Shown here: one piece after another, positions 2,000-17,905 of the stretch
Layout of the letters: every line of letters starts with the position of its first letter
Position numbering within the stretch: position 1 is the first letter of the stretch
Source of the DNA: Planctomycetota bacterium
GTDB taxonomy: Bacteria; Planctomycetota; PLA2; JAEUHO01
Length of the DNA: 64,000 nucleotides
Reading direction: 5' to 3'
NCBI GenBank assembly: GCA_965222115.1
Contig: CBDCTJ010000007.1
Span: 2,048,001 to 2,112,000 of the forward strand
The notes under the pieces: generated by a model
Seen by the model: only the letters and a program-made list of their open reading frames with translations
Told to the model about the DNA's origin: nothing
Databases searched by the model: none
Position numbers and translations under genes: made by a program

Positions 2000-2887
2000 G
2001 TGCCTGTCATGGTGTCCGAAGTTCTCGAACACCTGCTCGTGGATCAATCGACACGTGGCGTGATTGTGGATGGCACCGTTGGTGCTGGTGGTCATGCGCA
2101 AGCGATACTTGAGGCCGCGCCTCAGATCACATTGCTCGGAATCGATCGGGATCCCGCCATCCTCGCGATTGCGAAAGGACGGTTAGCGCCCTTTGGCGAT
2201 GCCATTCGTCTTACGCACGGTAGCTACGCCGATGTTGAAGCGCACGTAGCGCAACACGGTTTGTCGCGTCCGATGGGCGTGTTGCTCGACGTGGGGGTTT
2301 CCTCGCTTCAGCTCGACACACCGGAGCGTGGCTTCTCATTTGGTGATCCGAACCAACCGCTCGATATGCGGTTTGACGCGACGTCATCCGATGAAACGGC
2401 CGCCGACGTGCTCAATGGCGCGTCGTGGCGCGAACTCGCTGATGTGTTCTTTCATTACGGTGACATCACCGCATCGCGTCCCCTGGCGCGCGCCATTGTT
2501 GATGCTCGTCCGGTGAGAACTGTTGGCGAGTTGCGCGCGGTTGCCGAGCCGATTGTGAGTCGGGGCCGTCGTCACGATGCGATGACGCGCGTGTTTCAAG
2601 CCCTTCGCATTGCGGTGAACAAAGAACTCGAGCACCTCGAACGTGGACTGCGCGAGGCGCTGCGTGTGTTGCAGCCCGCGGGTCGCCTCGTGGTGCTGGC
2701 GTTTCAGAGCGGTGAAGAGCGTGTGATCAAGAAGGTCTTTCACGAGCATCGCAAGACGCATGGCGGTCGCGTATTGACCAAGAAGCCACTACGACCGACA
2801 CCGGCCGAGGTTGCTCGCAATCGACGCGCGCGTTCCACGCGTCTGCGTGCCTTTGAAGTTGCTCCAGATACCACGACAAGCACATGA
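2000..2887 (+). CDS. rsmH: 16S rRNA m4C1402 methyltransferase RsmH/MraW; true start may be upstream
   Basis: DGTVGAGGHA, GIDRD, DVGVSSLQLD..ERGFSF, PLDMRFD, FQALRIAVNKEL, NRRARSTRLR; follows mraZ. Confidence 0.96.
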   Translation: MPVMVSEVLEHLLVDQSTRGVIVDGTVGAGGHAQAILEAAPQITLLGIDRDPAILAIAKGRLAPFGDAIRLTHGSYADVEAHVAQHGLSRPMGVLLDVGVSSLQLDTPERGFSFGDPNQPLDMRFDATSSDETAADVLNGASWRELADVFFHYGDITASRPLARAIVDARPVRTVGELRAVAEPIVSRGRRHDAMTRVFQALRIAVNKELEHLERGLREALRVLQPAGRLVVLAFQSGEERVIKKVFHEHRKTHGGRVLTKKPLRPTPAEVARNRRARSTRLRAFEVAPDTTTST

Positions 2888-2960: not shown

Positions 2961-3449
2961 ATGAACTGGGCCACGATCATCGCCGTACTGCTTGCCACCG
3001 TTGCCACGGCCATGGTGGCGGTATGCGAATTCACCGAGATTCGGCGCATTCAATATCAGTCCTATAAGGTGGAGCGCCGCAGCGAACAAACCGAACGACG
3101 CATTCTTCGGTTGCGCGGTTCGATTGAGGCACTGACCACGCCGAGGCGCCTACTTGAGCATTTGGATGCGCCGGCGCCACCCGCGACTTCCATGCCCATG
3201 CCAAATCTCGGGACGCCCACCGTGACGGAAGTGCGTGGCGCATTGTCCGATCCCACACCACCGACTGAAGTACTCGACGAGGCCGCACGTCTTCGACTTG
3301 AGGAATCACAACGACGTGAAGAGGAGCGTCGCCGTACAGCTCCGCAATCGTTTGGCGCTGGACTCCCGCACGGCATGCAAGGGGCTGAGCACTTTGAATC
3401 GAATCGATCCGGCGCAAATCGCTCGGCACCCACAAGGCGGTCGCGATGA
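2961..3449 (+). CDS. FtsL-like bitopic membrane protein with extended C-terminus
   Basis: N-terminal TM helix and coiled coil ending in LTTPRRL; occupies the ftsL position between rsmH and ftsI. Confidence 0.6.
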   Translation: MNWATIIAVLLATVATAMVAVCEFTEIRRIQYQSYKVERRSEQTERRILRLRGSIEALTTPRRLLEHLDAPAPPATSMPMPNLGTPTVTEVRGALSDPTPPTEVLDEAARLRLEESQRREEERRRTAPQSFGAGLPHGMQGAEHFESNRSGANRSAPTRRSR

Positions 3450-5392
3450 GTCGGCGCAACACCCCAACCCGTTTGCCGCGCAGCGTGCCGCTGACGGAGT
3501 ACCGCCGCACGCTTGCTGCAACCCGTCGTTTCCGCACCAACTTTGTGTTCGGGATGTTGTTGGCGTTCTTCTGCCTCATGCTCTTGCGACTTGGCAAGTT
3601 GCAGATTGTGGATGCGCAGATCTATCGCGAGAAGGCACTGGCAAGCCAGTTCGTGTCGCATAAGTTCCGTCCCCGGCGGGGGCGCATCTTGGATCGCCAC
3701 GGCCACGTGATGGCCACGGGACGGCCTGCATTGCGCGTGGACTTGGATCCGCGCACGATTGTGGATCCCGACAACAAGACCGATCCCCGTACGTTTTCCG
3801 TGCTCCTTTCCGATTTTCTCGGCGGCGATCCGAGCCCCGACACCATTTTCCGTCGCATCGATGACGCTCGTCGCTTTGCTCGCGCGAAGGGCACCAAGGT
3901 TACACAGTACGCGCCGCTTGTGGCCAAAGTCGAAGATCCCTTGATTGTTGACCGGCTTGAAGCGTTTCGTTTCACGAGCCGCAAAGGCAAGCAGGCCATG
4001 GGACTGTATGGCGCCGTGGTGTCGACAGTTGAGGGTCGGCTCTATCCCAATGGTTCTTACGCGGCTCACGTCATTGGCAAAGTTCCCCAAGGCAAGAAAG
4101 ACGCGCGAGTAGGTATTGAGGGTACCTATCACGATCTACTTCGCGGTGAAGTGGTGCGTCGGCGCATTGGTCGCGATGCCGGTTGGCGTCGAATGGCCAC
4201 GCCTGCGGACATGCGTGGACATCAGTCACGTGGCGAAGACGTCATCCTCACCATCGATCTTGTTGTTCAATTCTATCTTGAGAGCGCGCTCGATGAATTG
4301 ATGGCCGAGCACAAGTCGTTTCATGCCTGCGGCATTGTGATGGACGTGAAGTCGGGCGAGATCTTGGCAATGGCTAGCCGTCCAACGTTTGATCCCAACA
4401 CGCAGGGCTTCTCAAGCATGAACTACGCGATTCAGGGCATGTATGAGCCCGGTAGCGTGTTCAAGCCTTTTACCGTTGCGCTTGCGCTGCGCGACAAGAA
4501 AGTCGGGCCCAACCAAAACATTGCCATGCCCAGGCGTCGTTCGTTTGAAGGTGATCCCCATCCAATCAGCGACTCCCATCCAGTGGGTGACGGCACCGTC
4601 GAGCGTCTGATTGCACACAGCAGTAACACCGGCGCGGCCGAACTTGGTCATCGCCTCGGTGCCAAACGCATGCAGCAATGGGTGCGCTATCTCTTCCAAC
4701 CGGCGCAACATACGAAAAACAAGCGTGGGACAGGCTTGGGATTGGCCTACGAGAAGGGCTTCCGTCCTGAGCGTTCTCGTTGGACGCTGCACAACGCACA
4801 CCGGGCCTCCTACGGTCAGGGGTTTGACGTAACACCGATTCAGGTGGCGATGGCGTTCTCCGCATTCGCGCGAGTTGATGGGTGCATGGTTCGACCGCGC
4901 ATCGTGTTGACGACGGATCCGGTTCAGCGAGCGGCCCAGCCCGTGGTGGGGAAGCGCGAGCGCGAAGTGATTCAACGTGGACTTCTTTCCTGCACCACGG
5001 AAGGCACGGCGGCAAATGCGTTTGCCGGATGTCTCTACAACGTTGCGGGTAAAACCGGCACAGCGCAGCAGACGGGCCGGTTGCAGGCACATGAGGTCAA
5101 GCTGCGCGGCGAGGGCATCGTCGGCGCCTACAGCAGGTTCAATATCTGCAGCTTCGCGGGCTATGCACCTGCTGCACATCCTGAGGTGCTCGTGTTTGTT
5201 CTCGCCAAGCACCTGAAAGAAGACGAGAAGAGCGGTGGCAAAGTCGCCGCGCCTGCGGTACGCGAAGTGATTGAGAAGACGCTCGCCTATTGGCGTGTAC
5301 CGGCTCGTCCGACGGTTACGGCAGAGTTCGCGCGCGGTGCGAATCGTGATGCGCACCAAGACGTGTTGCCTGCCTTGAGGGGAAGCCGATGA
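3446..5392 (+). CDS. ftsI: Class B penicillin-binding protein (FtsI/PBP3-like)
   Basis: TM helix, RGRILDR, LTID, GEILAMAS.P.FDPN; catalytic motifs SVFK (SxxK), SSN and KTGT. Confidence 0.92.
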   Translation: MSRRNTPTRLPRSVPLTEYRRTLAATRRFRTNFVFGMLLAFFCLMLLRLGKLQIVDAQIYREKALASQFVSHKFRPRRGRILDRHGHVMATGRPALRVDLDPRTIVDPDNKTDPRTFSVLLSDFLGGDPSPDTIFRRIDDARRFARAKGTKVTQYAPLVAKVEDPLIVDRLEAFRFTSRKGKQAMGLYGAVVSTVEGRLYPNGSYAAHVIGKVPQGKKDARVGIEGTYHDLLRGEVVRRRIGRDAGWRRMATPADMRGHQSRGEDVILTIDLVVQFYLESALDELMAEHKSFHACGIVMDVKSGEILAMASRPTFDPNTQGFSSMNYAIQGMYEPGSVFKPFTVALALRDKKVGPNQNIAMPRRRSFEGDPHPISDSHPVGDGTVERLIAHSSNTGAAELGHRLGAKRMQQWVRYLFQPAQHTKNKRGTGLGLAYEKGFRPERSRWTLHNAHRASYGQGFDVTPIQVAMAFSAFARVDGCMVRPRIVLTTDPVQRAAQPVVGKREREVIQRGLLSCTTEGTAANAFAGCLYNVAGKTGTAQQTGRLQAHEVKLRGEGIVGAYSRFNICSFAGYAPAAHPEVLVFVLAKHLKEDEKSGGKVAAPAVREVIEKTLAYWRVPARPTVTAEFARGANRDAHQDVLPALRGSR

Positions 5393-6975
5393 GTGCCGCG
5401 GTGGCCAGCCCCCAAACGCTTGGCGATGTCCTCGACGTTTTGGATGTTCCCAAGACGCAAGGCGTAGATCGTTCGATCGTTGTACGTCAGCTTGCCGATG
5501 ATTCGCGGGCGTGCATCGAGGGCACGGTGTTCTTTGCACGTCGCGGTACGACGAAGGGCGGGGCGGCCTACGTTGAGGACGCCGTCGCCCGAGGCGCTAC
5601 GTTAGTGATCACTGAAGCGTCCTTGGACGCATCCATTCCTCACGTCGTTGTGGACTCGGTGGACGACGCACTTCGGTGCGTAGCCGATCGTTGGTTTGGC
5701 GAACCGCAGACGCGGTTGCAGTTGTTTGCGGTGACGGGAACCAAGGGAAAAACCACGGTGGCCCACCTGCTCGCATCGGGCTTGCGTGCGTGCGGTGTAA
5801 AGACGGCCATGATCGGAACCACGGGACACGACGTGGGTGATGAGGCGATGATCGCCGCCAGCAACACGACGCCCGGCATCCTACAACTCCGCGAACTCTT
5901 GGCGCGCGCCGTCGAGAACGGATGCGAAGCCGCTGTGCTTGAAGTGTCGAGCCATGCCCTCGATCAGGGACGCACGGAAGGACTCGATTTCTCTGCAGCC
6001 ATCTTCACCAATCTCACCAGCGATCACCTCGACTACCACAAGACGCGCGACGCGTACCGCGACGCGAAGCTGCTGCTTTTCAAGGGTCTTGCACCCGACG
6101 CCCACGCCGTTCTCAATCGCGACGACCCCGCCTTTGGTGCCTTTGCCGAGGCCACTCGCGCGGTGGTTACGAGTTTTGGTCAGGATCCACGAGCCGATGT
6201 ACTGGCCTCCGAGCTTGAGCTCACCGCAACACACTCCACGTTTCGCGTGACGGGGTTGGACCATCCGATGCCCGCCTACACGACGAGGTTGGTGGGGCGA
6301 CACAATGTGAGCAATGTGCTGGCCGCGCTTACTTGCTTGCACGTACTTGGTCACGACATGGAGCAAGCGGCGACAGGCATCGCGTCACTATCGTTGGTAC
6401 GCGGACGCTTGGAACGCGTTGAAATTGATGGCACCGAGAGTGACGTTCATGCATTCGTGGACTACGCCCATACCGAAGATGCACTTCGTCAAGTCTTGGA
6501 GTTCCTGCGCGGCGTCGGCGCCCATCCGATCACCGTCGTTGTTGGCTGCGGTGGCGATCGCGATACGACCAAACGTCCGCGTATGGCGCGCGTGGCTGCC
6601 GAGATTGCGCACGCCGTCATTTTCACCAGTGACAATCCGCGGAGCGAGGATCCGCAATCGATTCTCGACGACATGTTGCGCGGGCTCAATCACGTATCTA
6701 GCGGTCCAAGTGGGCGCGTCATGACAATTGTCAATCGCCGCGAAGCGATTGAGCGCGCCATTCTCGATGCACCCGCCGGTTCCACCGTGCTCGTGGCCGG
6801 CAAAGGACATGAGACTTACCAGATCATTGGCAACGAACGCTTGCCATTTTGTGACGTCACCGAAGTGCGGCGCGTACTAACGCTGCGCGCCGGATTATCA
6901 GGCGGTGACGACGACGAACGAGGCGGCGAAAAGAACCGCCGCGATGGGGATCCCCCCAGGGATAGTGAGGTATAG
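5389..6975 (+). CDS. murE: UDP-MurNAc-dipeptide:meso-DAP ligase MurE
   Basis: VTGTKGKTT, EVSSHALDQGR, DHLDYH, VDYAHT, GCGGDRD..KRP.M, DNPR (DAP-type motif), AGKGHE. Confidence 0.96.
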   Translation: MSAAVASPQTLGDVLDVLDVPKTQGVDRSIVVRQLADDSRACIEGTVFFARRGTTKGGAAYVEDAVARGATLVITEASLDASIPHVVVDSVDDALRCVADRWFGEPQTRLQLFAVTGTKGKTTVAHLLASGLRACGVKTAMIGTTGHDVGDEAMIAASNTTPGILQLRELLARAVENGCEAAVLEVSSHALDQGRTEGLDFSAAIFTNLTSDHLDYHKTRDAYRDAKLLLFKGLAPDAHAVLNRDDPAFGAFAEATRAVVTSFGQDPRADVLASELELTATHSTFRVTGLDHPMPAYTTRLVGRHNVSNVLAALTCLHVLGHDMEQAATGIASLSLVRGRLERVEIDGTESDVHAFVDYAHTEDALRQVLEFLRGVGAHPITVVVGCGGDRDTTKRPRMARVAAEIAHAVIFTSDNPRSEDPQSILDDMLRGLNHVSSGPSGRVMTIVNRREAIERAILDAPAGSTVLVAGKGHETYQIIGNERLPFCDVTEVRRVLTLRAGLSGGDDDERGGEKNRRDGDPPRDSEV

Positions 6976-6977
6976 AC

Positions 6978-8408
6978 ATGGAAGCCATTCGTCACTCAGA
7001 CGTGCTGCGCGCAACCGGTGGTGAGCCGGCAGGCCCCGTCGTGGGCGATCCGATGATTCGCGCAGTGACCACGGACAGCCGCGACGTTCCGCCGGGCGCG
7101 CTATTCGTGCCGATTCGAGGTAAGCGTTACGACGGCCACATTTTCGTCGAGCAGGCGTTCCTCAAGGGCGCTGCATTTAGCCTCGTGGCACGCGATGCAG
7201 GATTTACGCGCATTCCTCCCAATGCGATCGTGGTGGGGGACACTACCAAGGCGCTCGGCGACTTGGCGCGTTGGCATCGAAGTCGTTTCGACGTGCCCGT
7301 CGTGGGCATTACGGGCTCGTGCGGCAAGACCACGATTAAGGAAATGCTGCGTCCCATTCTTGGTGAGCGCGTCGTGGTGAGCCACGCCTCGTTCAACAAT
7401 AGCATTGGTGTACCGCTCACCTTGCTGCGCATGAATCGTTCGACACGCGCTTGTGTCGTGGAGATTGGAACCAGTGCGCCGGGCGAGATTGCCTACCTCA
7501 GCAGTATTGCCCGGCCCACCGTGGGCATCCTTTCCAATGTCGAAGAGGCACACCTTGAGGGCCTCGGCAGTGTACGCGGCGTCATGCGCGAGAAAGCTGC
7601 GCTGTTGCGCGCCGTTCCAGAGAGCGGCGCAGCGATCCTCAATGCCGACAACTACTATTGCCGCGAGATCATGTCCACGCTGCGCGGCCCTGCAGTCATC
7701 TCCTTTGGCACATGGGAAGACGCCGACGTCTACGGTCTCGAGGCGCGTCCCACGCGCGATGGCTTTGAGGTGTTGTTGTTTGGCCGAATGCCCATTCGCG
7801 TGCCTGCGCTCGGTATGCACAATGTGTCCAATGCCCTGGCGGCTGTGGCCTGCGGGTTGTGGTTGGGGCGTTCACCGTCACAAGTTGCAAACGGATTGGC
7901 GCACTACAAGACGCCCGCCATGCGCATGAGCCGCGAATCGGTTGGCAGTGTCACGTTGATCAACGACGCCTACAACGCCAATCCCGGAAGCATGGAAGCG
8001 GCGCTACGCGAGTTGGCACTGCGCGATTGTGGCGGACGACGTGTTGCGGTCCTTGGCGACATGTTGGAACTTGGTGACGAGACCGAGCGATTGCATCACC
8101 GTCTCGGTATGCGTGCCGCGCACAAGGCGATTGATCTCCTATGGGCCATCGGTCCCCATGCTGAAGTTGTCGCGTCGGCGGCGATGGACCGCGGCATGCC
8201 CGCCGATCGTGTTCGTTGGCATCAGAGTTTGAAAGAAGCCATGGCCGATCCTGCGTTTGAACCGGAAGCCGGTGACATGTGGCTCTTCAAAGCGTCGCGC
8301 GGTATGGCACTCGAGCACATTGTGGATTTGGTTCGCGAACGCGCCCGCAAAGTGCAGTCGATCCGTGCGCCACAGGGACTGAGTCGCATCAACAAGCCCG
8401 CCGGCTAA
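6978..8408 (+). CDS. murF: UDP-MurNAc-tripeptide:D-Ala-D-Ala ligase MurF
   Basis: ITGSCGKTT, SFNN.IGVPLTL, INDAYNANP.SM, LGDMLELG, KASRG. Confidence 0.96.
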   Translation: MEAIRHSDVLRATGGEPAGPVVGDPMIRAVTTDSRDVPPGALFVPIRGKRYDGHIFVEQAFLKGAAFSLVARDAGFTRIPPNAIVVGDTTKALGDLARWHRSRFDVPVVGITGSCGKTTIKEMLRPILGERVVVSHASFNNSIGVPLTLLRMNRSTRACVVEIGTSAPGEIAYLSSIARPTVGILSNVEEAHLEGLGSVRGVMREKAALLRAVPESGAAILNADNYYCREIMSTLRGPAVISFGTWEDADVYGLEARPTRDGFEVLLFGRMPIRVPALGMHNVSNALAAVACGLWLGRSPSQVANGLAHYKTPAMRMSRESVGSVTLINDAYNANPGSMEAALRELALRDCGGRRVAVLGDMLELGDETERLHHRLGMRAAHKAIDLLWAIGPHAEVVASAAMDRGMPADRVRWHQSLKEAMADPAFEPEAGDMWLFKASRGMALEHIVDLVRERARKVQSIRAPQGLSRINKPAG

Positions 8409-8476: not shown

Positions 8477-9913
8477 ATGCTCTATCACCTATTCGGACTC
8501 CTGGCCGATTCGCTGCCTGGTGCCCGTTTGGGTCAGTACATTGCGTTTCGGGCCGCGTTTGCTGCCATCTTAGCGTTTGGCGTCTCCGCGTGGTGGGGCA
8601 AGGGATTCATTGAAACGTTGCGCGAGCGAAAGATCGCGGGCTATGAATCCACGGGCAGCGCGAGTGTGGACGCCAGCCGGCAGCTCAAGGCGAATGTGCC
8701 CACGATGGGTGGTGTGATTCTGCTCATTGGCGTGGGTATATCCGCCTTGCTCTTTGCGCGTTTGGATCTTGCCTTTGTGTGGATACTGCTGCTTTCGTTT
8801 CTAGCTTTCGGTGCGCTGGGTGCTGTAGACGATTGGAAGAAGCTCACCGGAAAGGGCGGACGCGGGTTGCGTGAGCGCCACAAGATGGGCGCGCAATTGG
8901 CCATTGCACTAATTGCACTGTCTTCGATTTATGCGCTCGGCAATATGGAAGACGGCACGTCCTGGCTGCGTGGGCCGAGCATGAAGGAGAATCCCTATCA
9001 GCCCAAGTGGGTAAAGCGCCATGAGGTGGACCCCGGCGAGTCATGGAACTCGATGGCGGCTAAGTACTTAGGCGATGAGCGACGGGCCGCAGAGCTTGCC
9101 GAGCTTAACGGCCTTCCCCGTGAACGGCTCACGCCGGAGATCCTTGCTGCGCCGTGCGACACAAGTACGGGTCCAGCGCTTACGTCACCCACACTGCTTC
9201 CGCCTCTTGGGCGCGAAATCCGTATGAAGGCCGCATGGCCCAATCCGCGCGACCATCACCGCGCCGATGTGCAGATTCCGTTTGCAAAGAAGTTCTGCTT
9301 TGACTTGGGAATACTGTTTATTCCATTGGGCATACTCGTGATTGTCGGCGCGAGCAATGCGGTGAACCTCACGGATGGCCTCGATGGCCTCGCGATTGGA
9401 TCCACACTCACCACTGCCGGATGCTTCGCGGTGATTGCCTACCTTGTGGGGCGCGTTGACTTTTCGCAGTCGCTCTATCTGTTCTACATTCCAGAAGCAG
9501 GTGAACTTTCGATCCTCTGTGCAGCGCTCGTGGGGGGGGCGCTGGGTTTCCTGTGGTTCAACGGATTTCCCGCTGAAGTCTTCATGGGCGACACGGGGTC
9601 ACTGAGCATTGGCGGGTTCTTTGGTGTGTTGGCTGTCATGTTGCGCCATGAGTTTACGCTGTTGATTGCGGGTGGGTTGTTTGTTGCCGAAGCGCTTTCG
9701 GTCATCATCCAGCGCGGCTACTTCAAACGCACCAAACGAGCCGCCATACGACGCGGTGACCCAAATCCCACCGGCAAACGTGTATTTTTGTGTGCACCGA
9801 TTCACCACCACTTCCAAGAACTGAAGTGGCACGAAAATAAGGTCACCATTCGCTTTTGGATCATCTCATTCATCTGTGCGATCGCTGCGCTGGCATCGCT
9901 GAAGGTGCGGTAG
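8477..9913 (+). CDS. mraY: Phospho-MurNAc-pentapeptide transferase MraY with an inserted LysM-like domain
   Basis: PTMGG, AVDDWKK, NAVNLTDGLDGL, FMGDTGS, APIHHHF. ATG 8477 follows GAGGGAG. About 100 extra aa lie at roughly 8950-9265. Confidence 0.95.
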   Translation: MLYHLFGLLADSLPGARLGQYIAFRAAFAAILAFGVSAWWGKGFIETLRERKIAGYESTGSASVDASRQLKANVPTMGGVILLIGVGISALLFARLDLAFVWILLLSFLAFGALGAVDDWKKLTGKGGRGLRERHKMGAQLAIALIALSSIYALGNMEDGTSWLRGPSMKENPYQPKWVKRHEVDPGESWNSMAAKYLGDERRAAELAELNGLPRERLTPEILAAPCDTSTGPALTSPTLLPPLGREIRMKAAWPNPRDHHRADVQIPFAKKFCFDLGILFIPLGILVIVGASNAVNLTDGLDGLAIGSTLTTAGCFAVIAYLVGRVDFSQSLYLFYIPEAGELSILCAALVGGALGFLWFNGFPAEVFMGDTGSLSIGGFFGVLAVMLRHEFTLLIAGGLFVAEALSVIIQRGYFKRTKRAAIRRGDPNPTGKRVFLCAPIHHHFQELKWHENKVTIRFWIISFICAIAALASLKVR

Positions 9914-9916
9914 TCA

Positions 9917-11083
9917 ATGGCGGGATCTACCAAAGCCTCACGGCCACTTTCTCCTGCGGCACTCGACCGCAATGCCAACGCTGCGTATGCCGGTCACGCG
10001 GTCTTGACCATTGCTGTGGGACTCGTGAGCCTCGGCCTGTTGATGGTCTATTCAACGAGTTCTGTCAAGAGCGCCTTCTCCGATAGTCACACACAGGTCT
10101 ATACGCTCTCTCGGCAACTTCAGTGGGTCTTCATCGCTATCGTCGCAGGCGGCATCGCGGCGTGGGCGCCAACTTCGCTCCTGCGCGCTATCGCGAAACC
10201 CGCCATGTTGATTTCGCTCGCTCTCTTGGCCGCAACGCTTCTGTTTGCGCCCGAACGCAACAAAGCCAAGCGATGGCTCTACATCGCGGGAATCAGCGTG
10301 CAGGCTAGTGAGTTCTTCAAGATCGCCGTGCTGTTATTCCTCGCCGATCGCTTGTCGCGCCGAGAACGCGCGCAGTCCTTTGGCGATTCCATGCCCTTTG
10401 CGCCGGTGCTCCTACCGTTGGGCGTGGGGGTGGTATTGGTCCTCCTCGCGCCCGATCTCGGTATGAGCTTGTTCTTGGTTGCTGAAATCGTGGTCTTGTT
10501 GGGGCTTGGCGGCGTGCGCCCCACACGCTTTGTCCCATTGCTGCTCACGTCGCTGCCGCTGATCGTGTTCTATGCCTACACGCGCTTCGGCCACGTGCGC
10601 AAACGTATCGAGCTTTTCTCCAACAACGAAGGCAACAGCCAAGTCCGCGAAGCGCTCATCGCCATGGGTAGCGGTGGGCTCATGGGCGTAGGGCTTGGCG
10701 AGGGCAAACAGAAGCTCGGCTACATCGCCGAGGCCCACACCGACTTCATCTTCGCCGTCATTGGCGAGGAACTCGGTTTCCTCGGCTGCGCCGGCGTCGT
10801 CCTCGCCTTCATGGCCTTCATTTGGTACGGCCGCAAAGTCGCCTGGCACGCCCGCGAAGTCGGCGGCGACGGCTCCCACGGCTTCTACCTCGCCGCCGGC
10901 GCCACCTTCATCGTCTGCTTCCAAGCCCTCATCAACATCGCCGTCGTCACTGCCACCGCTCCAACGAAGGGCGTTTCTCTGCCGTTCATTAGCGTCGGAG
11001 GTAGCAATTTGGTAGTGGCATGTACGTGTGTGGGGCTGATTGTAAATGTGTCGCGGAGGTCGGTGAGGAGGGGGAGGCGGTAG
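9917..11083 (+). CDS. ftsW: SEDS peptidoglycan polymerase FtsW
   Basis: Multi-TM; AKRW, QASEFFK, PDLG, GSGG..G.GLG.G.QK, EAHTDFIFAVIGEELG, PTKGVSLPFISVGGS. Confidence 0.95.
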   Translation: MAGSTKASRPLSPAALDRNANAAYAGHAVLTIAVGLVSLGLLMVYSTSSVKSAFSDSHTQVYTLSRQLQWVFIAIVAGGIAAWAPTSLLRAIAKPAMLISLALLAATLLFAPERNKAKRWLYIAGISVQASEFFKIAVLLFLADRLSRRERAQSFGDSMPFAPVLLPLGVGVVLVLLAPDLGMSLFLVAEIVVLLGLGGVRPTRFVPLLLTSLPLIVFYAYTRFGHVRKRIELFSNNEGNSQVREALIAMGSGGLMGVGLGEGKQKLGYIAEAHTDFIFAVIGEELGFLGCAGVVLAFMAFIWYGRKVAWHAREVGGDGSHGFYLAAGATFIVCFQALINIAVVTATAPTKGVSLPFISVGGSNLVVACTCVGLIVNVSRRSVRRGRR

Positions 11084-11112
11084 ACTTGGGGAACCCCTCG
11101 GTTTGGAAGGTG

Positions 11113-12282
11113 ATGAGCCCGGTGACGATTTCCCCATGGCAGTTAGTCGTCGTTGATGGACCCGACGCGGGCACGAGCTTCGTGTTTGATCGCGAAGCGG
11201 TTGTGTTCGGGCGTGCGGGAACACCCGATCAGGAGCTTCGAACGCCCTCGGATGCACGCATTAGCCGAGAACATGCGGAACTTCGAATCACGGACGATGG
11301 ACTGACATTCTCGTGTCGAGAGGGGCGTGCGCCGTTCGTGGTCGATGGCGAGGAAGTGATGCAGGGGCGCGTGGAATGGGGGCAAGCGTTTGGCGTTGGC
11401 GTGAGCGAGTTGCGCCTTGAACGACGTCATGAGGCACGCGGCGATCGACGCGGCACGTGGCTTCCCCGACGCACACTCGATGAATTTGAGCTCGGCGACG
11501 AGGTTGGCTCTGGCTTGTCGGCGCGCGTCTATGAGGCGGTAGATCGCATGACCAGCAGACCTCTGGCGATCAAGGTGTTTCGACCTGAAATGGCGTTGGT
11601 GGAGCCCATCGTATCGTTATTTTTGAGAGAGTCAGAACTACACGCGGGTCTGCGGCACCCAAACATTGTTCGCACGGTGTGCGTGGGTCGAGATCGCTCA
11701 GAGTTGTTCATTGGCATGGAGTGGATCGATGGATGCAATCTTCGCGAACGCGTGGATGCCATTGGACTCTTGTCGCCGCGCGAAGCTACAGATCTGGCAC
11801 TCGCTATTTTGCCCGCACTGGCCTATACGCATGAGCGTGGCGTCATTCATCGCGATGTAAATCCCAGTAACATCATGCTTGCAGGTGATGAACCTCGACG
11901 TGCAAAGTTAATCGATTTCGGTATGGCTCGATTCCATCAAAATCGAACGAAGGATCAGACGATAACCAACACAGGTGAAGTCCGCGGTACGCTTAGATTT
12001 TCAGCGCCCGAATGCCTCTTAGATGCAAAGCGCGCCGGCCCTGCCGCTGATGTGTTTGGAGTCGGCACGACCCTCTACTATGCGCTTACGGGTAAACCTT
12101 GGTTTGACGATTCGGGTAACAATGAAGATTTTCTTCCAGGGGTGAGTACCGCACGTGTAGTCCCCACACGCGAGCGCGTTCCAGGCGTGCCTAACAAACT
12201 GGCGGACGCAATTGATCGTGCAATACAATTGATGCCGAACGACAGGTGGGACGGGGCCAAGGAAATGTGTGAAGCGCTTTGA
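11113..12282 (+). CDS. FHA domain plus Hanks-type Ser/Thr kinase
   Basis: FHA motifs FGR and ISREHA. Kinase motifs VGSGLSARVY, LAIK, HRDVNPSN, DFG, APE, ADVFGVG. ATG 11113 follows GGAAGG. Confidence 0.9.
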   Translation: MSPVTISPWQLVVVDGPDAGTSFVFDREAVVFGRAGTPDQELRTPSDARISREHAELRITDDGLTFSCREGRAPFVVDGEEVMQGRVEWGQAFGVGVSELRLERRHEARGDRRGTWLPRRTLDEFELGDEVGSGLSARVYEAVDRMTSRPLAIKVFRPEMALVEPIVSLFLRESELHAGLRHPNIVRTVCVGRDRSELFIGMEWIDGCNLRERVDAIGLLSPREATDLALAILPALAYTHERGVIHRDVNPSNIMLAGDEPRRAKLIDFGMARFHQNRTKDQTITNTGEVRGTLRFSAPECLLDAKRAGPAADVFGVGTTLYYALTGKPWFDDSGNNEDFLPGVSTARVVPTRERVPGVPNKLADAIDRAIQLMPNDRWDGAKEMCEAL

Positions 12283-12305: not shown

Positions 12306-13382
12306 TCAGTATAAGAACCTAAAGGCGATCTGCGGAGCGATTGCTTTGGAGGCCGAGTAGTTGGTGTCGTCATTGATTGTGGTCGACTGGGATGAAGACT
12401 GCGCGCTCTGTATGAGTTTGATTCCCGCGAGTTCGAGTGCAGGCGCTACCGATACGGTCCGAATGTTTGCGCCGATTGCGCCAAGTGTTGGAGTCTGCAC
12501 TACGATAAGCTCTGACGCCAAATTCATGATCTTGCTATAGGAGAGGAGCTCGCTGTTGGGCAAATCAAGTATACTGAGGATTGCAGCAGTAAACAGACCA
12601 TGTTTCGGTCCCTCAAACGCGAGTTCATTTTCCGCTGCTGCAGACATTGCAATGAGGTTTGCCTGAATCGGAATGAGTCTCCCGCCTCTTCTAATGGGGC
12701 CTGACGGAATCTTACCTTGCAACAAAAGCGACGCGATTGCGTCGTCCGCGGCCCGCGTTAGCGGCGCCCGTGGGATCGCAGTCCCGCTTTCGTCGATCCC
12801 CGTCATGAGCAGATAGTTCTTAGTCGCATCTATTCCTCCAGGAATTCGAACAGGCGGTCGCTTCGCAATCTGATCGAAGTCGATTGAAATTCCTCGATCC
12901 TGTGGAGCTGCTCCCGTGAGTTGAAGGGGACGCCTCTCATCATCAATAACACCGGCAGCGAAACACGCGTCAGTCACAACAACTACTTCACAATCTTTGG
13001 GGATCGAAACAAGTTTGTTGTGTATAACGTCGTCGAGCAGGACGCCATCGTGGAGACACCAGGCTTCGTCCCAGCCATCTCTGTCTGTGGCCACACCACG
13101 AAGGCTCAGTCCGTGACCCGCGAACGTAATCATCAACAAGTCACCTGGAATTAGCCGCTCGATTGTCGCGTCAATGACATTCTCTACGTTTTCTAGAGTC
13201 GCGTCGTCGCCAAGTACAACCCGAGCTGAGCATCCGACATCATTCGCCCAGTCGCGCATTGCCCGCGCGTCGTTCTCCGCTGATGAGAGTGAAGGCAGAT
13301 AACCCAAGAACACATCGTTAGACACCTCGTTTATACCGATGTGAATCGACCGGCCTTCGTTCCAGGACTGTCTGCGGCTCAT
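12306..13382 (-). CDS. Caspase-family (peptidase C14, metacaspase-like) protease
   Basis: IHIGIN, L..AENDARAM, AT..N, TFAGHG (catalytic His), DGWDEAWCLHD, VTDAC (catalytic Cys), HGLFTAAIL, QTP. Confidence 0.9.
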   Translation of the reverse strand: MSRRQSWNEGRSIHIGINEVSNDVFLGYLPSLSSAENDARAMRDWANDVGCSARVVLGDDATLENVENVIDATIERLIPGDLLMITFAGHGLSLRGVATDRDGWDEAWCLHDGVLLDDVIHNKLVSIPKDCEVVVVTDACFAAGVIDDERRPLQLTGAAPQDRGISIDFDQIAKRPPVRIPGGIDATKNYLLMTGIDESGTAIPRAPLTRAADDAIASLLLQGKIPSGPIRRGGRLIPIQANLIAMSAAAENELAFEGPKHGLFTAAILSILDLPNSELLSYSKIMNLASELIVVQTPTLGAIGANIRTVSVAPALELAGIKLIQSAQSSSQSTTINDDTNYSASKAIAPQIAFRFLY

Positions 13383-13447
13383 CGTTTTTAACTTCAAGAG
13401 CGACAGTTCGGGATGTGGTCAAATTTCGCTAGTCTTGCCTTCATCGA

Positions 13448-14613: not shown

Positions 14614-17600
14614 TCAACGATAGGGCGGCAGCATACTCAAGACCTCTGAGGGAGTCAACACTTCACGGCGCGTGTGTTTGTGTTGAGCCGCATGGGCCCA
14701 CGTGTTTGCCCGCTGTATGATGCCTGGATGCAAATGCTCGTGCTCTTGGGCGACGCACATGAGGGCGGCAGTTTGTGAGGCAATTCCGGGGGGGTGATCT
14801 GACCAGTGTTCAAGAACACGTTTACGTACGAGATTCATGTCTGCAGGAGATCTCCTCTGGCAAACCAGTAAAAGTGCCAAGGCAATATTCTGAAGTGCCA
14901 AACTGCCTGCGGCCCTTCTAAAGCACTCAGCCGCAGTCTGGCAATGATTGCTCGCTCTAGCGTTGCGGCCAGCGCGCCAAAGTATCGCCGCTTCGTTCAG
15001 GAGTATCGCACCGCGGAGTAGGTCGCGGTCCAGCAAGTTGGCGGCGCGAACCAATTCCTTGTCCTCGCAGCTCTCCACATTGCGTCGGTATTTTACCACC
15101 CTGAGTAGCCGTTCGATTCTGGGAATGTTTGCGTGATCTCTACGCTTGCTTGCCAAGACGAACGCTTCGTTCACCAGCGAATCCGCAGTCCCCAGTTCTG
15201 CTGCTTCAGTTGCCGCGATTGCCGCATTGCACAGTGCGGTGACTCTCCCTCGATCCGAAATTGCTCGCCTAGCGGCTCTTCGGTGGAGCCCTACTGCAGA
15301 TTGGTAGCGACCTTCGTGAAAGCGAAGCCAGCCGGTCCAGGCCGCGATCCGATATCTAAGCGCCGGGTTTGGGCCTCTTCGAGCGTATCGTACTGCACTA
15401 GCGATCGTCTCTCGCTGTTGGTCGATCGAATCGCCCCTCCGCGCTGATAGGTTAGAGACTGTGAGGAACAACTCGGTTTGTTTAATCGATTTGTCGCCGG
15501 GGACGTCGTCAAGGGAGTATTGGCGTTCTACCGATTGTTCTTGAAAAGTCGCTCTTGCATGCCGAATGAGATGCTTCCAGAAATTCAGTGAAGATGACGT
15601 GTTCGTGGCTAACTCTAAATGGTACATCGCCACGTCGAGCGATCGAATAGTCGTCAGTCCCAAGGAGGCTTCTACAAGCTCGGGCCAGATCTGCGGTGTT
15701 TGAACGCGAGAGTGTTTTCGCTGTTCACACAGTGCAAGGTTGATCAGGGAGAACGCGGTGCCATATTCGCCAGTTAGAATTCTCCGTTGCGCCGCTACCT
15801 TTGCAGATTGGACTAAGGCGTGTGTATCACCCATCGCCATATATAGGAGAGGTGCTTCAATGGAATCCAGAGGTAGGAGAGTCGCGATCGCCCTGCACCA
15901 CCGATTCTTAGTTTCAGAATCAACTGAGGCCAGATCTGGGCATGGCACTGCAATCCACGCTTTGCGTTCTCGGTCCAAGTCTACCGCCGAAATTCCCTTT
16001 AGTTCGCATATCGCTGAGCGGACGTGCTCCTTGGACATTGAAACGAAAGTCTCAATGTCGCTAGGGTTCAGTCCCGTACCTGCCAAAGTAAGGAACGCCC
16101 ACACGTCCCGTGCGTCAGCACTAAGGTTTTCGACACGCTCTCCAAGTGTCGGTACATAGGCGGGCGGCGACGACACAATGCGTCGTTGCGCACGTGGATC
16201 AACGTACAGCCCATCGTCCCAGGTGGCCAATCCCGCTGCGATCCAACGCTCAATTTCGTGCAGAATCGTCTTGGGGCGGCCTCTGGAGTGCTTCCAAAGC
16301 ACCTCGGAGAGTTCATCCTGTGTAAAGAAGAAGCGGTTGGAGCTCTTAATGAGCGGCCGGATGTCATCTTCGGATAGATAGTGACATTCTTTCGAATTTG
16401 AGCCCTGAGGCGCAACCGTAGACGTCACGAGGCAGGCGAAACCGGAACTCTGTGCAAGCCGTTCTTGCTCGCGTGGGTCCAAGCGATCGAAATCGTCGAC
16501 GAAGAGCGCCGTTGCGGAGTTCAAGGCGCCTATGGCAGAGCCGGGTGCGTGCCACCGAGTTGAAACGCCACTATTCGAGAGCTCATTTGCAGCTTCTTGA
16601 AGCGTTCGGGTTCGTCCTGAACCGGGTCGCCCATAGACATTGATGCTACGTCCCGCAGGCACGGCATCAACAACAGCTTGTATGATGTCTCGCGGGCCCA
16701 GGAAGGGAAGCTCTAGTGTGTGCTCGACACCGAGTGCGCGTTGCAACTCCCGAACGACCGTGTCCATGCTATCTGGACGACGATTGGCGTCGGCACGCAC
16801 CATAGAACCCAGCACATCGCCAATGCCGTCCGGCAGTTCCTTTAGTAGCTTGATACTCTCCAACATCTCGGTGACGGGATCCGTGTCGCCCTGCCCGCGA
16901 CGAAGTCTGCGAATCGCTGTGAGTATCGTCATACCCGCTGCGTAAATGTCGCTGGCTGTGTCGGCGACGGCCCCCGCCATACGTTCAGGAGACATATAGA
17001 GCGGCGTGCCAATAATCACCGCATACTCGCGGTACTTGTCCGGATCGGATTCGTCTTCGGCAATGCCGAGATCCACAATGGTCACTTGTCCATGTTCATC
17101 AACGAGCACATTGCTCGGTTTGAGATCGCGATGCACAACACCCGCAAGGTGGAGTCGGCGCAACGCCTCCATAAATGAAAGCACGCGAGGGAGAAGCGTC
17201 TCTGGATCGTATCGATCGAGGTCGCTCCCAGGAAATCGGGAGCCCTCAACGAGGTTCATGACGAGAAACGCCCAGCCTTCGTGGCGACCATCATCGAGTA
17301 ATTTCACAATTCCGGGAACACGGGCGCGTCGCAGGGTGGCGAGTTCGCGGTCGTAGCGTTTTGACTGACGCTCACTCGTTAGCGCAACGAACTTGACGGC
17401 GACATCCACATCGTCAATCCGATCGTGTGCTTCGTACACCGTACCGAAGGCACCACGGCCCAATTCTTGCTTCAGGGTGTATCGCTTCGCTACAACATCG
17501 CCCGTGGTCGGAAACGAGACGCGGAGTTGCTCCATGTCGCCAGTGCCAGGCGTCTTGAGTAGTGTTTGATCTTCGCTGCCCGCCACGTGTTTAGGGGCAG

Positions 17601-17787
17601 CAGGATCTCGAGTGGCTTCGTCGCGGCGTTTTACCTGATCTTGAAGCGCAAGCAGGCGCAGCGTTTCGCGGCATGTCGATTCGTCGTTGCCACATGCGTT
17701 TTGAACAAAGGCCTCACGCGCATGAACCGCGACGGATTGAGCAGCATCGAGAACCGAAGCTACGCGTTCCCAGTCGGCCTGATCCAT
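14614..17787 (-). CDS. Ser/Thr kinase + P-loop ATPase-like domain + helical/TPR-like C-terminus
   Basis: LGRGAFGTVY, VAVK, HRDLKPSN, DLG, GTPLYMSPE; Walker A-like GRPGSGRT; Walker B-like LFVDDFD; about 400 aa of Ala/Arg-rich helical repeats. Confidence 0.88.
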   Translation of the reverse strand: MDQADWERVASVLDAAQSVAVHAREAFVQNACGNDESTCRETLRLLALQDQVKRRDEATRDPAAPKHVAGSEDQTLLKTPGTGDMEQLRVSFPTTGDVVAKRYTLKQELGRGAFGTVYEAHDRIDDVDVAVKFVALTSERQSKRYDRELATLRRARVPGIVKLLDDGRHEGWAFLVMNLVEGSRFPGSDLDRYDPETLLPRVLSFMEALRRLHLAGVVHRDLKPSNVLVDEHGQVTIVDLGIAEDESDPDKYREYAVIIGTPLYMSPERMAGAVADTASDIYAAGMTILTAIRRLRRGQGDTDPVTEMLESIKLLKELPDGIGDVLGSMVRADANRRPDSMDTVVRELQRALGVEHTLELPFLGPRDIIQAVVDAVPAGRSINVYGRPGSGRTRTLQEAANELSNSGVSTRWHAPGSAIGALNSATALFVDDFDRLDPREQERLAQSSGFACLVTSTVAPQGSNSKECHYLSEDDIRPLIKSSNRFFFTQDELSEVLWKHSRGRPKTILHEIERWIAAGLATWDDGLYVDPRAQRRIVSSPPAYVPTLGERVENLSADARDVWAFLTLAGTGLNPSDIETFVSMSKEHVRSAICELKGISAVDLDRERKAWIAVPCPDLASVDSETKNRWCRAIATLLPLDSIEAPLLYMAMGDTHALVQSAKVAAQRRILTGEYGTAFSLINLALCEQRKHSRVQTPQIWPELVEASLGLTTIRSLDVAMYHLELATNTSSSLNFWKHLIRHARATFQEQSVERQYSLDDVPGDKSIKQTELFLTVSNLSARRGDSIDQQRETIASAVRYARRGPNPALRYRIAAWTGWLRFHEGRYQSAVGLHRRAARRAISDRGRVTALCNAAIAATEAAELGTADSLVNEAFVLASKRRDHANIPRIERLLRVVKYRRNVESCEDKELVRAANLLDRDLLRGAILLNEAAILWRAGRNARASNHCQTAAECFRRAAGSLALQNIALALLLVCQRRSPADMNLVRKRVLEHWSDHPPGIASQTAALMCVAQEHEHLHPGIIQRANTWAHAAQHKHTRREVLTPSEVLSMLPPYR

Positions 17788-17905
17788 GAAACGGCGGTGC
17801 CCCACGAGCGTTGATTCGAGGCACGTACGGTTGGCCCCGACAGATCACATCGAGGCGTGATTGTGTTCAATTGAAGCCTTTAGAGCAAGAGGGTTGTGGG
17901 ATCCG

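Follow-up and report, generated by a model that had tools for sequence, protein, structure and literature searches.

What might a piece of about 100 extra residues do in MraY, a drug target that catalyzes the first membrane step in making peptidoglycan and has a cytoplasmic active site? The question is raised by the mraY gene of a 64,000-nucleotide stretch of DNA from a Planctomycetota bacterium (GenBank assembly GCA_965222115.1, contig CBDCTJ010000007.1, positions 2,048,001 to 2,112,000, forward strand), which is referred to here as the window and numbered from its first letter. An initial annotation, made from the sequence alone, had read the extra piece as a LysM domain inserted into an extracytoplasmic loop of MraY. 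Alignments and structure models indicate that the enzyme is complete and that the insert is a divergent LysM-type domain, giving a new domain architecture that is built from a known enzyme and a known module. We favor, with a probability of about 0.5, the reading that this LysM binds peptidoglycan-type glycan near the membrane and so holds MraY at polymerization sites.

A complete MraY with an insertion

The mraY product scored 327.6 bits on the MraY equivalog model TIGR00445 (cut-off, 192.05), and the window's gene was the single locus above this cut-off in a genome that is 90.3% complete; it is thus the sole mraY found there. The gene start was placed at the ATG at 8477, since the N-terminal residues that follow it (MLYHLF) align with the starts of relatives and of the solved Aquifex aeolicus enzyme, 4j72. 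This ATG lies 69 bases past the murF stop; the mechanical open reading frame (ORF), from a GTG at 8279, overlaps the end of murF by 130 bases. In a phmmer alignment to 4j72, the chain positions of which are the native numbering plus 6, D118, D119, D372, and H443 of the window protein fell on D117, D118, D265, and H324 of the A. aeolicus enzyme, the catalytic residues named in the consulted portion of PMC4790310. All four were invariant in an alignment of 60 relatives, in agreement with the initial annotation, which had called the catalytic motifs intact. The hairpin residues Q266, P268, K271, D276, L277, and G278 were likewise invariant in the 60-sequence alignment.

A full-length AlphaFold2 (AF2) model computed from the 60-sequence alignment had a mean predicted local distance difference test score (pLDDT) of 77.3 and a predicted template-modeling score of 0.77, with helices at residues 22 to 50, 79 to 93, 99 to 124, and 133 to 159 of the N-terminal part. 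Foldseek aligned this model to Escherichia coli MraY (8g01_A) with an E value of 9e-21 and a TM-score of 0.88 on target length, and the first 15 entries listed (ranks 1 to 24) were all MraY; model and search together give the ten-helix PNPT fold. An ESM Atlas search with the whole protein returned plain MraY clusters only (scores of 0.82), and one with the insert alone returned no usable match. Altogether, as judged from alignment and model, MraY is complete, its catalytic residues and fold are intact, and the additional residues were inserted into it. Compared with the A. aeolicus enzyme, the window protein also has 12 more residues (residues 420 to 431; window 9734 to 9769) in the last cytoplasmic loop; several of these positions are nearly invariant in the family.

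The borders of the insert were given by two comparisons. The TIGR00445 match was split at model position 119, with pieces that end and restart at window positions 8950 and 9263, and phmmer aligned residues 1 to 148 to 4j72 positions 7 to 152 and residues 266 to 478 to positions 165 to 365, so that about 117 residues occupy the place of about 12 in A. aeolicus MraY. The in-frame insert comprises residues 159 to 263 (window 8951 to 9265), that is, 105 residues, and contains ...RHEVDPGESWNSMAAKYLGDERRAAELAELNGL...LPPLGREIRM..., followed by IPFAKKFCFDLG. The initial annotation had counted about 100 extra residues between a transmembrane (TM) helix and the hairpin, which both comparisons bear out; the residues that it quoted are correct, and its start, 8950, is one base out of frame, the in-frame start being 8951. 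The insert adjoins TM4 (model helix 133 to 159) and the hairpin (strands 264 to 266 and 273 to 276) directly, and its G+C content (0.575 to 0.59) is that of its surroundings. The same insert is present in independent assemblies, and therefore it is not an assembly chimera, the artifact that the initial annotation had named as a possible refutation.

In the crystal structure of MraY, as outlined in the portion of PMC4790310 consulted, there are ten helices and a periplasmic beta-hairpin, and the N and C termini are periplasmic. The TM4-TM5 connection must be periplasmic, because the active-site loops (D118/D119 before TM4 and NLTDGLDG after TM5) are cytoplasmic. By homology with the solved enzymes, then, the insert is predicted to lie on the periplasmic face of MraY, the side to which the initial annotation had assigned the loop.

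The insert is a divergent LysM domain

Pfam returned no family for the window insert alone at an E value of ≤10. Of the two families for which the initial annotation had suggested a scan, PF00953 was found in the protein and PF01476 (LysM) was not matched by the window insert. PF00953 is also the only family annotated on the window protein and its 36 relatives (37/37 entries) in a collection of 5.8 billion proteins. We then considered an alignment (A1) of 21 complete inserts from the window's own family, designated f1. Twelve of the 21 members had LysM matches below the Pfam gathering cut-off of 20.9 bits, which is an annotation threshold rather than a structural definition; the best had an E value of 4.4e-4 and covered model positions 1 to 43, and long-loop members, scanned as single sequences, matched only positions 1 to 30-36. 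Because single-sequence scores stay below the cut-off, the insert is called divergent LysM-type here. Phage_tail_X (PF05489) gave matches in 4 of the 21 members, also below threshold (best, 16.5 bits against a cut-off of 22).

Profile comparisons placed the insert with LysM. hhalign of A1 against 16 Pfam-delimited LysM segments gave a probability of 98.5% (E value of 3.6e-15 over 50 columns), the 16 proteins having been found with the insert profile, hence not independently of it, and their segment borders having been taken from Pfam. The alignment covers insert residues 23 to 95 with one gap of 23 residues in the helix 2-strand 2 loop, which is the extra internal loop described in the initial annotation. 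A profile of insert plus hairpin matched 1534 of 1.84 billion representative proteins at an E value of ≤1e-3 and 63 at ≤1e-10. Among the best 150 matches, 23 were scanned with Pfam: three were MraY-type, one was a 99-residue fragment, and all 19 others carried PF01476 above cut-off, with low E values that sum over 3 to 8 repeats. In 401 Planctomycetota genomes, weaker matches to the core of the insert profile (positions about 22 to 76) occurred in other ORFs; all 12 of those examined were Pfam LysM, 11 of them above cut-off, and none was MraY. In a profile search of PDB sequences, the best match was an entry named "LysM domain-containing protein" from the baseplate of a Streptomyces injection system (9gtp_P; E value of 0.0059), and the next was the LysM pair of a Thermus NlpC/P60 endopeptidase (4uz2; E value of 0.015).

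The positions that characterize LysM are kept. In A1, the turn before helix 1 reads G-[DE]-[ST]-[WLF], with S or T in 17 of 21 members; the Ala of helix 1 (A36), A50, and the Asn that closes helix 2 (N53) show no variation, and G87 of strand 2 is conserved at ≥90%. In the full-length protein, the core residues A194, A208, and N211 are invariant or nearly so, as are R165, P173, and Y174 of the first flank, the motif of which (RGPS.KP.PY) occurs in the sister family (f2) as well; G245, H261, and R262 in strand 2 and the second flank are nearly invariant.

The AF2 model of the insert alone, computed from A1 (pLDDT, 76.8), has strand 22-25, helices 32-40 and 43-52, an extra short helix at 62-66, and strand 89-92. 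The same elements appear in the full-length model, in which pLDDT block means range from 65 to 90 over residues 161 to 250. There, the core comprises strand 181-183 and helices 190-198 and 201-210, with block means of 90, 87, and 88 over residues 181 to 210, and the minimum of 65 falls in the expansion of the helix 2-strand 2 loop, the part that corresponds to the 23-residue hhalign gap and is missing from 12 of the 21 aligned family members. Both models thus predict the beta-alpha-alpha-beta fold of LysM domains (about 45 to 65 residues), and the structure prediction proposed in the initial annotation comes out in favor of LysM.

Foldseek of the insert model against the PDB returned nothing at an E value of ≤1e-3, and its weak matches were LysM folds. 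With an exhaustive aligner run on 48,161 chains, 40 chains reached a Z score of ≥2, and nearly all of the first 33 were LysM or LysM-like. The top neighbors were 8kea_J (Z, 6.0; root mean square deviation, 2.3; 58 residues aligned), 9gtp_P (5.7), 4uz2_A (5.6), and Kbp 7pvc (5.6), and AtlA, MltD, Ecp6, CEBiP, and P2 gpX were found lower. Such modest Z values are expected for a 50-residue domain, and the weight lies in the enrichment, not in single scores. Profile, fold, and motif positions agree in assigning the insert to the LysM superfamily as a divergent member, which standard annotation overlooks.

Distribution of the MraY-LysM architecture

MraY was found in all 41 genomes searched. The LysM insert is present in the window and in 24 of 25 f1 relatives, of which 20 have a continuous full-length match, three have contig-cut ORFs that still contain the insert (G014, G016, and G007), and one (G381) was added by the profile search of the 401 Planctomycetota genomes. 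In that search, full-profile insert matches (E values of 1e-23 to 1e-40) were confined to f1, with 16 of 16 sampled f1 genomes plus the window. The LysM insert was not seen in f2 or in the other Planctomycetota families sampled. In each of the 11 f2 genomes, the match came either in two pieces or as one partial piece. The five f2 loops that were read have 46 to 54 residues, with both flanks in common (RGPS..P.PY and P..DHR.D) and no LysM. In a second alignment (A2), the insert measures 78 to 108 residues in 56 of 56 f1-type sequences versus 46 to 54 in 4 f2 sequences; four contig-cut f1 ORFs, one cut f2 ORF, and P0020 (383 residues) were left out of A1 and A2.

All 36 homologous clusters match the insert stretch, 35 of them over 99 to 100% of it and one 383-residue entry over 89%. 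A pattern scan of GTDB species genomes found 25 loci, all in metagenome-assembled genomes titled Planctomycetota, Planctomycetia, or uncultured Planctomycetales; these overlap the genomes of the other surveys and are not independent of them. Among the best 150 of the 1534 profile matches, MraY parts were seen only in P0039, P0044, P0047 (a fragment), and P0079; multi-repeat LysM proteins fill these 150, so that a single-LysM MraY of another phylum would rank lower, and the scope of this statement is the best 150. The MraY-LysM design is so far confined to one uncultured planctomycete family.

We also considered that the sister family might keep LysM as a separate gene of the dcw cluster, and this was rejected: none of 18 LysM matches lay on the mraY contig in the five f2 genomes (5/5). 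No Pfam-level LysM gene was found in the window's own wall-gene cluster. Within f1, the window genome is an outlier: its mraY locus has 60% G+C, where the other members have 67 to 76%, and a long branch close to the family root leads to its MraY.

Gene neighborhood and FtsZ

The window has a dcw-type gene row on the plus strand, in which mraY is embedded (Table 1).

Table 1. Parts of the window's mraY gene and neighboring genes (window positions)
Feature	Position	Strand	Basis or remarks
mraY coding sequence	8477..9913	+	478 residues plus stop; TIGR00445; N terminus MLYHLF
N-terminal part, residues 1-158, TM1-TM4; D118/D119 at cytoplasmic TM3 end	8477..8950	+	Aligned to 4j72 7-152
Insert, first flank, residues 159-176, DGTSWLRGPSMKENPYQP	8951..9004	+	Common to LysM-less sister family; strand 168-171 in full model
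LysM core, strand 1 to helix 2, residues 177-212, KWVKRHEVDPGESWNSMAAKYLGDERRAAELAELNG	9005..9112	+	AF2 model; hhalign to LysM
Variable expansion of helix 2-strand 2 loop, residues 213-243	9113..9205	+	Mean pairwise identity 0.22
LysM strand 2 (LGREIRM) and second flank up to HHRA, residues 244-263	9206..9265	+	Strand 247-249 in model
Periplasmic beta-hairpin of MraY, residues 264-278, DVQIPFAKKFCFDLG	9266..9310	+	Model strands 264-266 and 273-276; 4j72 alignment resumes
TM5-TM10 with cytoplasmic loops; D300/D303, D372, H443-H445 conserved	9311..9910	+	Aligned to 4j72 165-365; invariant columns
rsmH	2000-2887	+	
162-residue ORF in usual ftsL position, between rsmH and class B penicillin-binding protein	2961-3449	+	No Pfam/NCBIfam family
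Class B penicillin-binding protein	3446-5392	+	
murE	5389-6975	+	
murF, upstream neighbor of mraY	6978..8408	+	TIGR01143, 396.6 bits (cut-off, 288.6)
ftsW/SEDS glycan polymerase gene, immediately downstream of mraY	9917..11083	+	TIGR02614, 299.9 bits (below cut-off, 337.5); RodA/SpoVE models

A gene for an FHA and Ser/Thr protein kinase protein (11020 to 12282) follows ftsW directly, overlapping its end by 64 bases as listed. It occupies the usual place of murG, and there is no murD or murG after mraY or ftsW in the cluster. On the opposite strand just downstream lie genes for a caspase-family (Peptidase_C14) protein (12306 to 13397) and a 1062-residue Ser/Thr kinase (14614 to 17805). The glycosyltransferase domain of class A penicillin-binding proteins (PBPs; PF00912) was matched in 11 of the 41 genomes, all of them insert-bearing f1 members (10 of 24 relatives and the window genome, at G000:C1:436106-436564); it was matched in none of the 11 sister-family genomes, and some insert-bearing genomes are also without a match.

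The initial annotation had suggested that the fusion might be an FtsZ-independent way to localize wall synthesis. None of 41 genomes gave a match to FtsZ_C (PF12327): neither the window genome nor any of 24 f1 relatives, 11 f2 genomes, or 5 genomes from five other families. Of the controls, 13 of 14 were positive, and MreB was found in 40 of the 41 genomes. A lack of FtsZ in the phylum is described in the part of the review PMC5147048 that was consulted. The insert is confined to f1, and FtsZ is missing from these relatives in general; therefore, the lack of FtsZ does not track with the insert. FtsZ_C being absent from genomes with and without the insert alike, an association of the insert with FtsZ loss was rejected, and the localization argument receives no specific support. 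The insert cannot explain in general how growth proceeds without FtsZ, though it may be something that a single lineage has added.

Proposed function

In peptidoglycan-binding LysM domains, the ligand site is formed by the strand 1-helix 1 loop and the helix 2-strand 2 loop and accommodates a GlcNAc-X-GlcNAc unit, as stated in the consulted portion of PMC4083421. In the reading that we favor, the LysM of MraY would keep this usual activity and bind a GlcNAc-containing glycan of the peptidoglycan type. Its connections are short and partly structured at both ends, so that the domain is expected within a few nanometers of the membrane; given the distance between membrane and wall, this favors membrane-proximal glycan. 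The likeliest ligands would be nascent or lipid-linked strands emerging from SEDS and PBP polymerases; the mature sacculus would be a less likely one. Such binding would keep MraY, and with it the synthesis of lipid I at the cytoplasmic side, where glycan is polymerized, so that the supply of precursors would be coupled in space to the growth of the wall. The genes around mraY are consistent with this proposal: those of the class B PBP, murE, murF, and ftsW surround it, and ftsW is the next gene.

Alternatively, the domain might act as an allosteric sensor that captures the sugar head of externalized lipid II or of short lipid-linked oligomers and signals to the active site. The insert does lie on the same periplasmic face as the extracytoplasmic regulatory site of MraY, but that site is made of the terminal helices and a periplasmic helix, not of the TM4-TM5 loop, according to the consulted portion of PMC10914600; moreover, since LysM recognizes GlcNAc-X-GlcNAc (PMC4083421, same portion), the lipid II disaccharide alone would be a poor ligand. 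We consider such a sensor quite unlikely.

Several observations weigh against glycan binding. None of the 21 family members in A1 reaches the Pfam LysM cut-off, the best scoring 20.6 against 20.9 bits. A single LysM module usually binds weakly. The top structural neighbors include LysM-like domains without a known glycan role, from phage and contractile-injection baseplates and from Kbp, and these tie with the glycan-binding LysM of the Thermus NlpC/P60 enzyme. In 9 of the 21 aligned members, as in the window protein, the helix 2-strand 2 loop, which forms half of the canonical glycan groove, contains a poorly conserved expansion of 23 to 30 residues that could cover or reshape the groove. Alternatively, the LysM fold might be a structural module that docks a periplasmic partner, such as the SEDS-PBP pair, or a second MraY protomer. 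LysM-like domains are used in this manner in phage baseplates and Kbp, which are among the best neighbors (8kea_J at Z 6.0; 9gtp_P at Z 5.7 and, by sequence, E 0.0059; Kbp at Z 5.6), and the matches of 4 members to Phage_tail_X as well as the expanded, variable groove loop fit a docking role too. Yet the motif positions of glycan-binding LysM are retained, and the best sequence matches of the profile are ordinary multi-LysM wall proteins, one of them with a muramidase domain. A docking role is therefore, in our view, unlikely.

Conservation and loss bear on whether the domain has a function at all. Compared in pairs, the LysM cores have a mean identity of 0.51, each flank has one of 0.54, and the expanded loop has one of 0.22; the corresponding means for TM1-4 and the C-terminal part are 0.65 and 0.76. 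Outside the loop, the insert (74 codons) has Nei-Gojobori ratios of nonsynonymous to synonymous substitution rates (dN/dS) of 0.08 to 0.57 in 14 pairs, versus 0.05 to 0.34 for the rest of the protein, with dS near saturation in several pairs. As far as these ratios tell, the insert is under purifying selection across f1 and is constrained less than the enzyme. That its dN/dS exceeds that of the rest of the protein in all 14 pairs adds to the points against a glycan-binding role, as does an f1 member, G012, without LysM. In its MraY, the two conserved flanks are joined by a Pro/Ala-rich linker of 36 residues. In a FastTree phylogeny of 29 sequences, rooted on f2 and built from the last 212 residues, a short stretch that leaves deeper nodes unsettled, G012 groups with two insert-bearing members at a local support of 0.98. 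This placement points to a secondary loss in G012, and hence to a domain that can be lost. The G012 genome is 85% complete, and its mraY ORF begins at a contig end; a frame-shifted LysM hidden there was ruled out, the other two frames being without a remnant. The G012 locus (L025, G012:C320:1-2413; linker region at bases about 75 to 290) has 76% G+C, and the contig opens with about 25 codons that do not resemble TM4, so that its start may be unreliable.

The domain could, then, be a tolerated passenger, a LysM module that entered a loop which had grown longer beforehand and that has been retained while doing little or nothing. The sister family, with its loop of 46 to 54 residues, and G012, with its Pro/Ala-rich loop, manage without a domain at the same place, and sequence change is faster in the insert than elsewhere in the protein. 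Nonetheless, the insert is in frame, its LysM core residues are conserved, it is kept in 24 of 25 relatives spanning many genera, and dN/dS is below 1 in 14 of 14 pairs. We regard a passenger as very unlikely.

Significance

The periplasmic face of MraY has only recently been proposed to receive regulatory input (PMC10914600, portion consulted). A natural MraY with a LysM on its outer face is a concrete construct for asking whether precursor supply couples to events outside the membrane. The LysM domain can be deleted, swapped, or mutated, and the sister family and the one LysM-less member provide natural controls. The case also shows that standard annotation misses the MraY-LysM architecture. 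It is limited to an uncultured lineage, an inferred function, and a design found in one family. A more far-reaching idea, which we hold only as a doubtful prospect, is a periplasmic sensor wired into MraY, in which binding of lipid-linked or nascent glycan sets the rate or place of the first membrane step. If true, nature would here have built into the enzyme itself the kind of extracytoplasmic feedback control that has recently been proposed for MraY, and a bacterium without FtsZ would have a way to keep precursor synthesis at active growth sites.

Comparison with known systems

No MraY-LysM fusion was described in the literature searched (full-text searches, judged by titles and abstract openings), in line with the initial annotation, which knew of none; the top matches deal with a lysis protein of phage M that bears the name LysM. 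In the text that was searched, PMC10632474 and PMC5147048 mention MraY and not LysM; in the portion of PMC10632474 consulted, mraY1 and mraY2 are reported to be non-essential in Planctopirus limnophila. Compared to canonical MraY (A. aeolicus 4J72; E. coli 8G01/8TLU), the window enzyme shares the TIGR00445 match, the catalytic Asp and His residues, and the ten-helix fold, and its gene is likewise placed between murF and ftsW. It differs in having about 105 extra LysM residues where solved MraYs have about 12, and in the 12-residue addition to a cytoplasmic loop.

The LysM domains of peptidoglycan hydrolases (Enterococcus faecalis AtlA, 2MKX; Thermus NlpC/P60, 4UZ2; MltD, 1E0G) resemble the insert in fold, motif positions, and profile homology. 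Unlike these, which are terminal repeats on soluble hydrolases, the insert is a single copy inside a polytopic membrane enzyme; it also scores below the Pfam cut-off, has a longer turn between helix 1 and helix 2 (YLGD..RA type), and, in the window protein, has 23 more loop residues. The LysM-like domains of phage and contractile-injection baseplates and of Kbp/YgaU (8KEA, 9GTP, 7AEB, and 7PVC) include the closest structures by Z score and the closest solved sequence, but they belong to soluble assemblies or cytoplasmic proteins. Finally, the regulatory site for externalized lipid II described in PMC10914600 (consulted portion) is similar in the idea that the periplasmic face of MraY receives information about the state of wall precursors; that site is a lipid cavity where the two protomers of the dimer meet, and it involves no extra domain, whereas the insert is a LysM-type domain located elsewhere on the same face.

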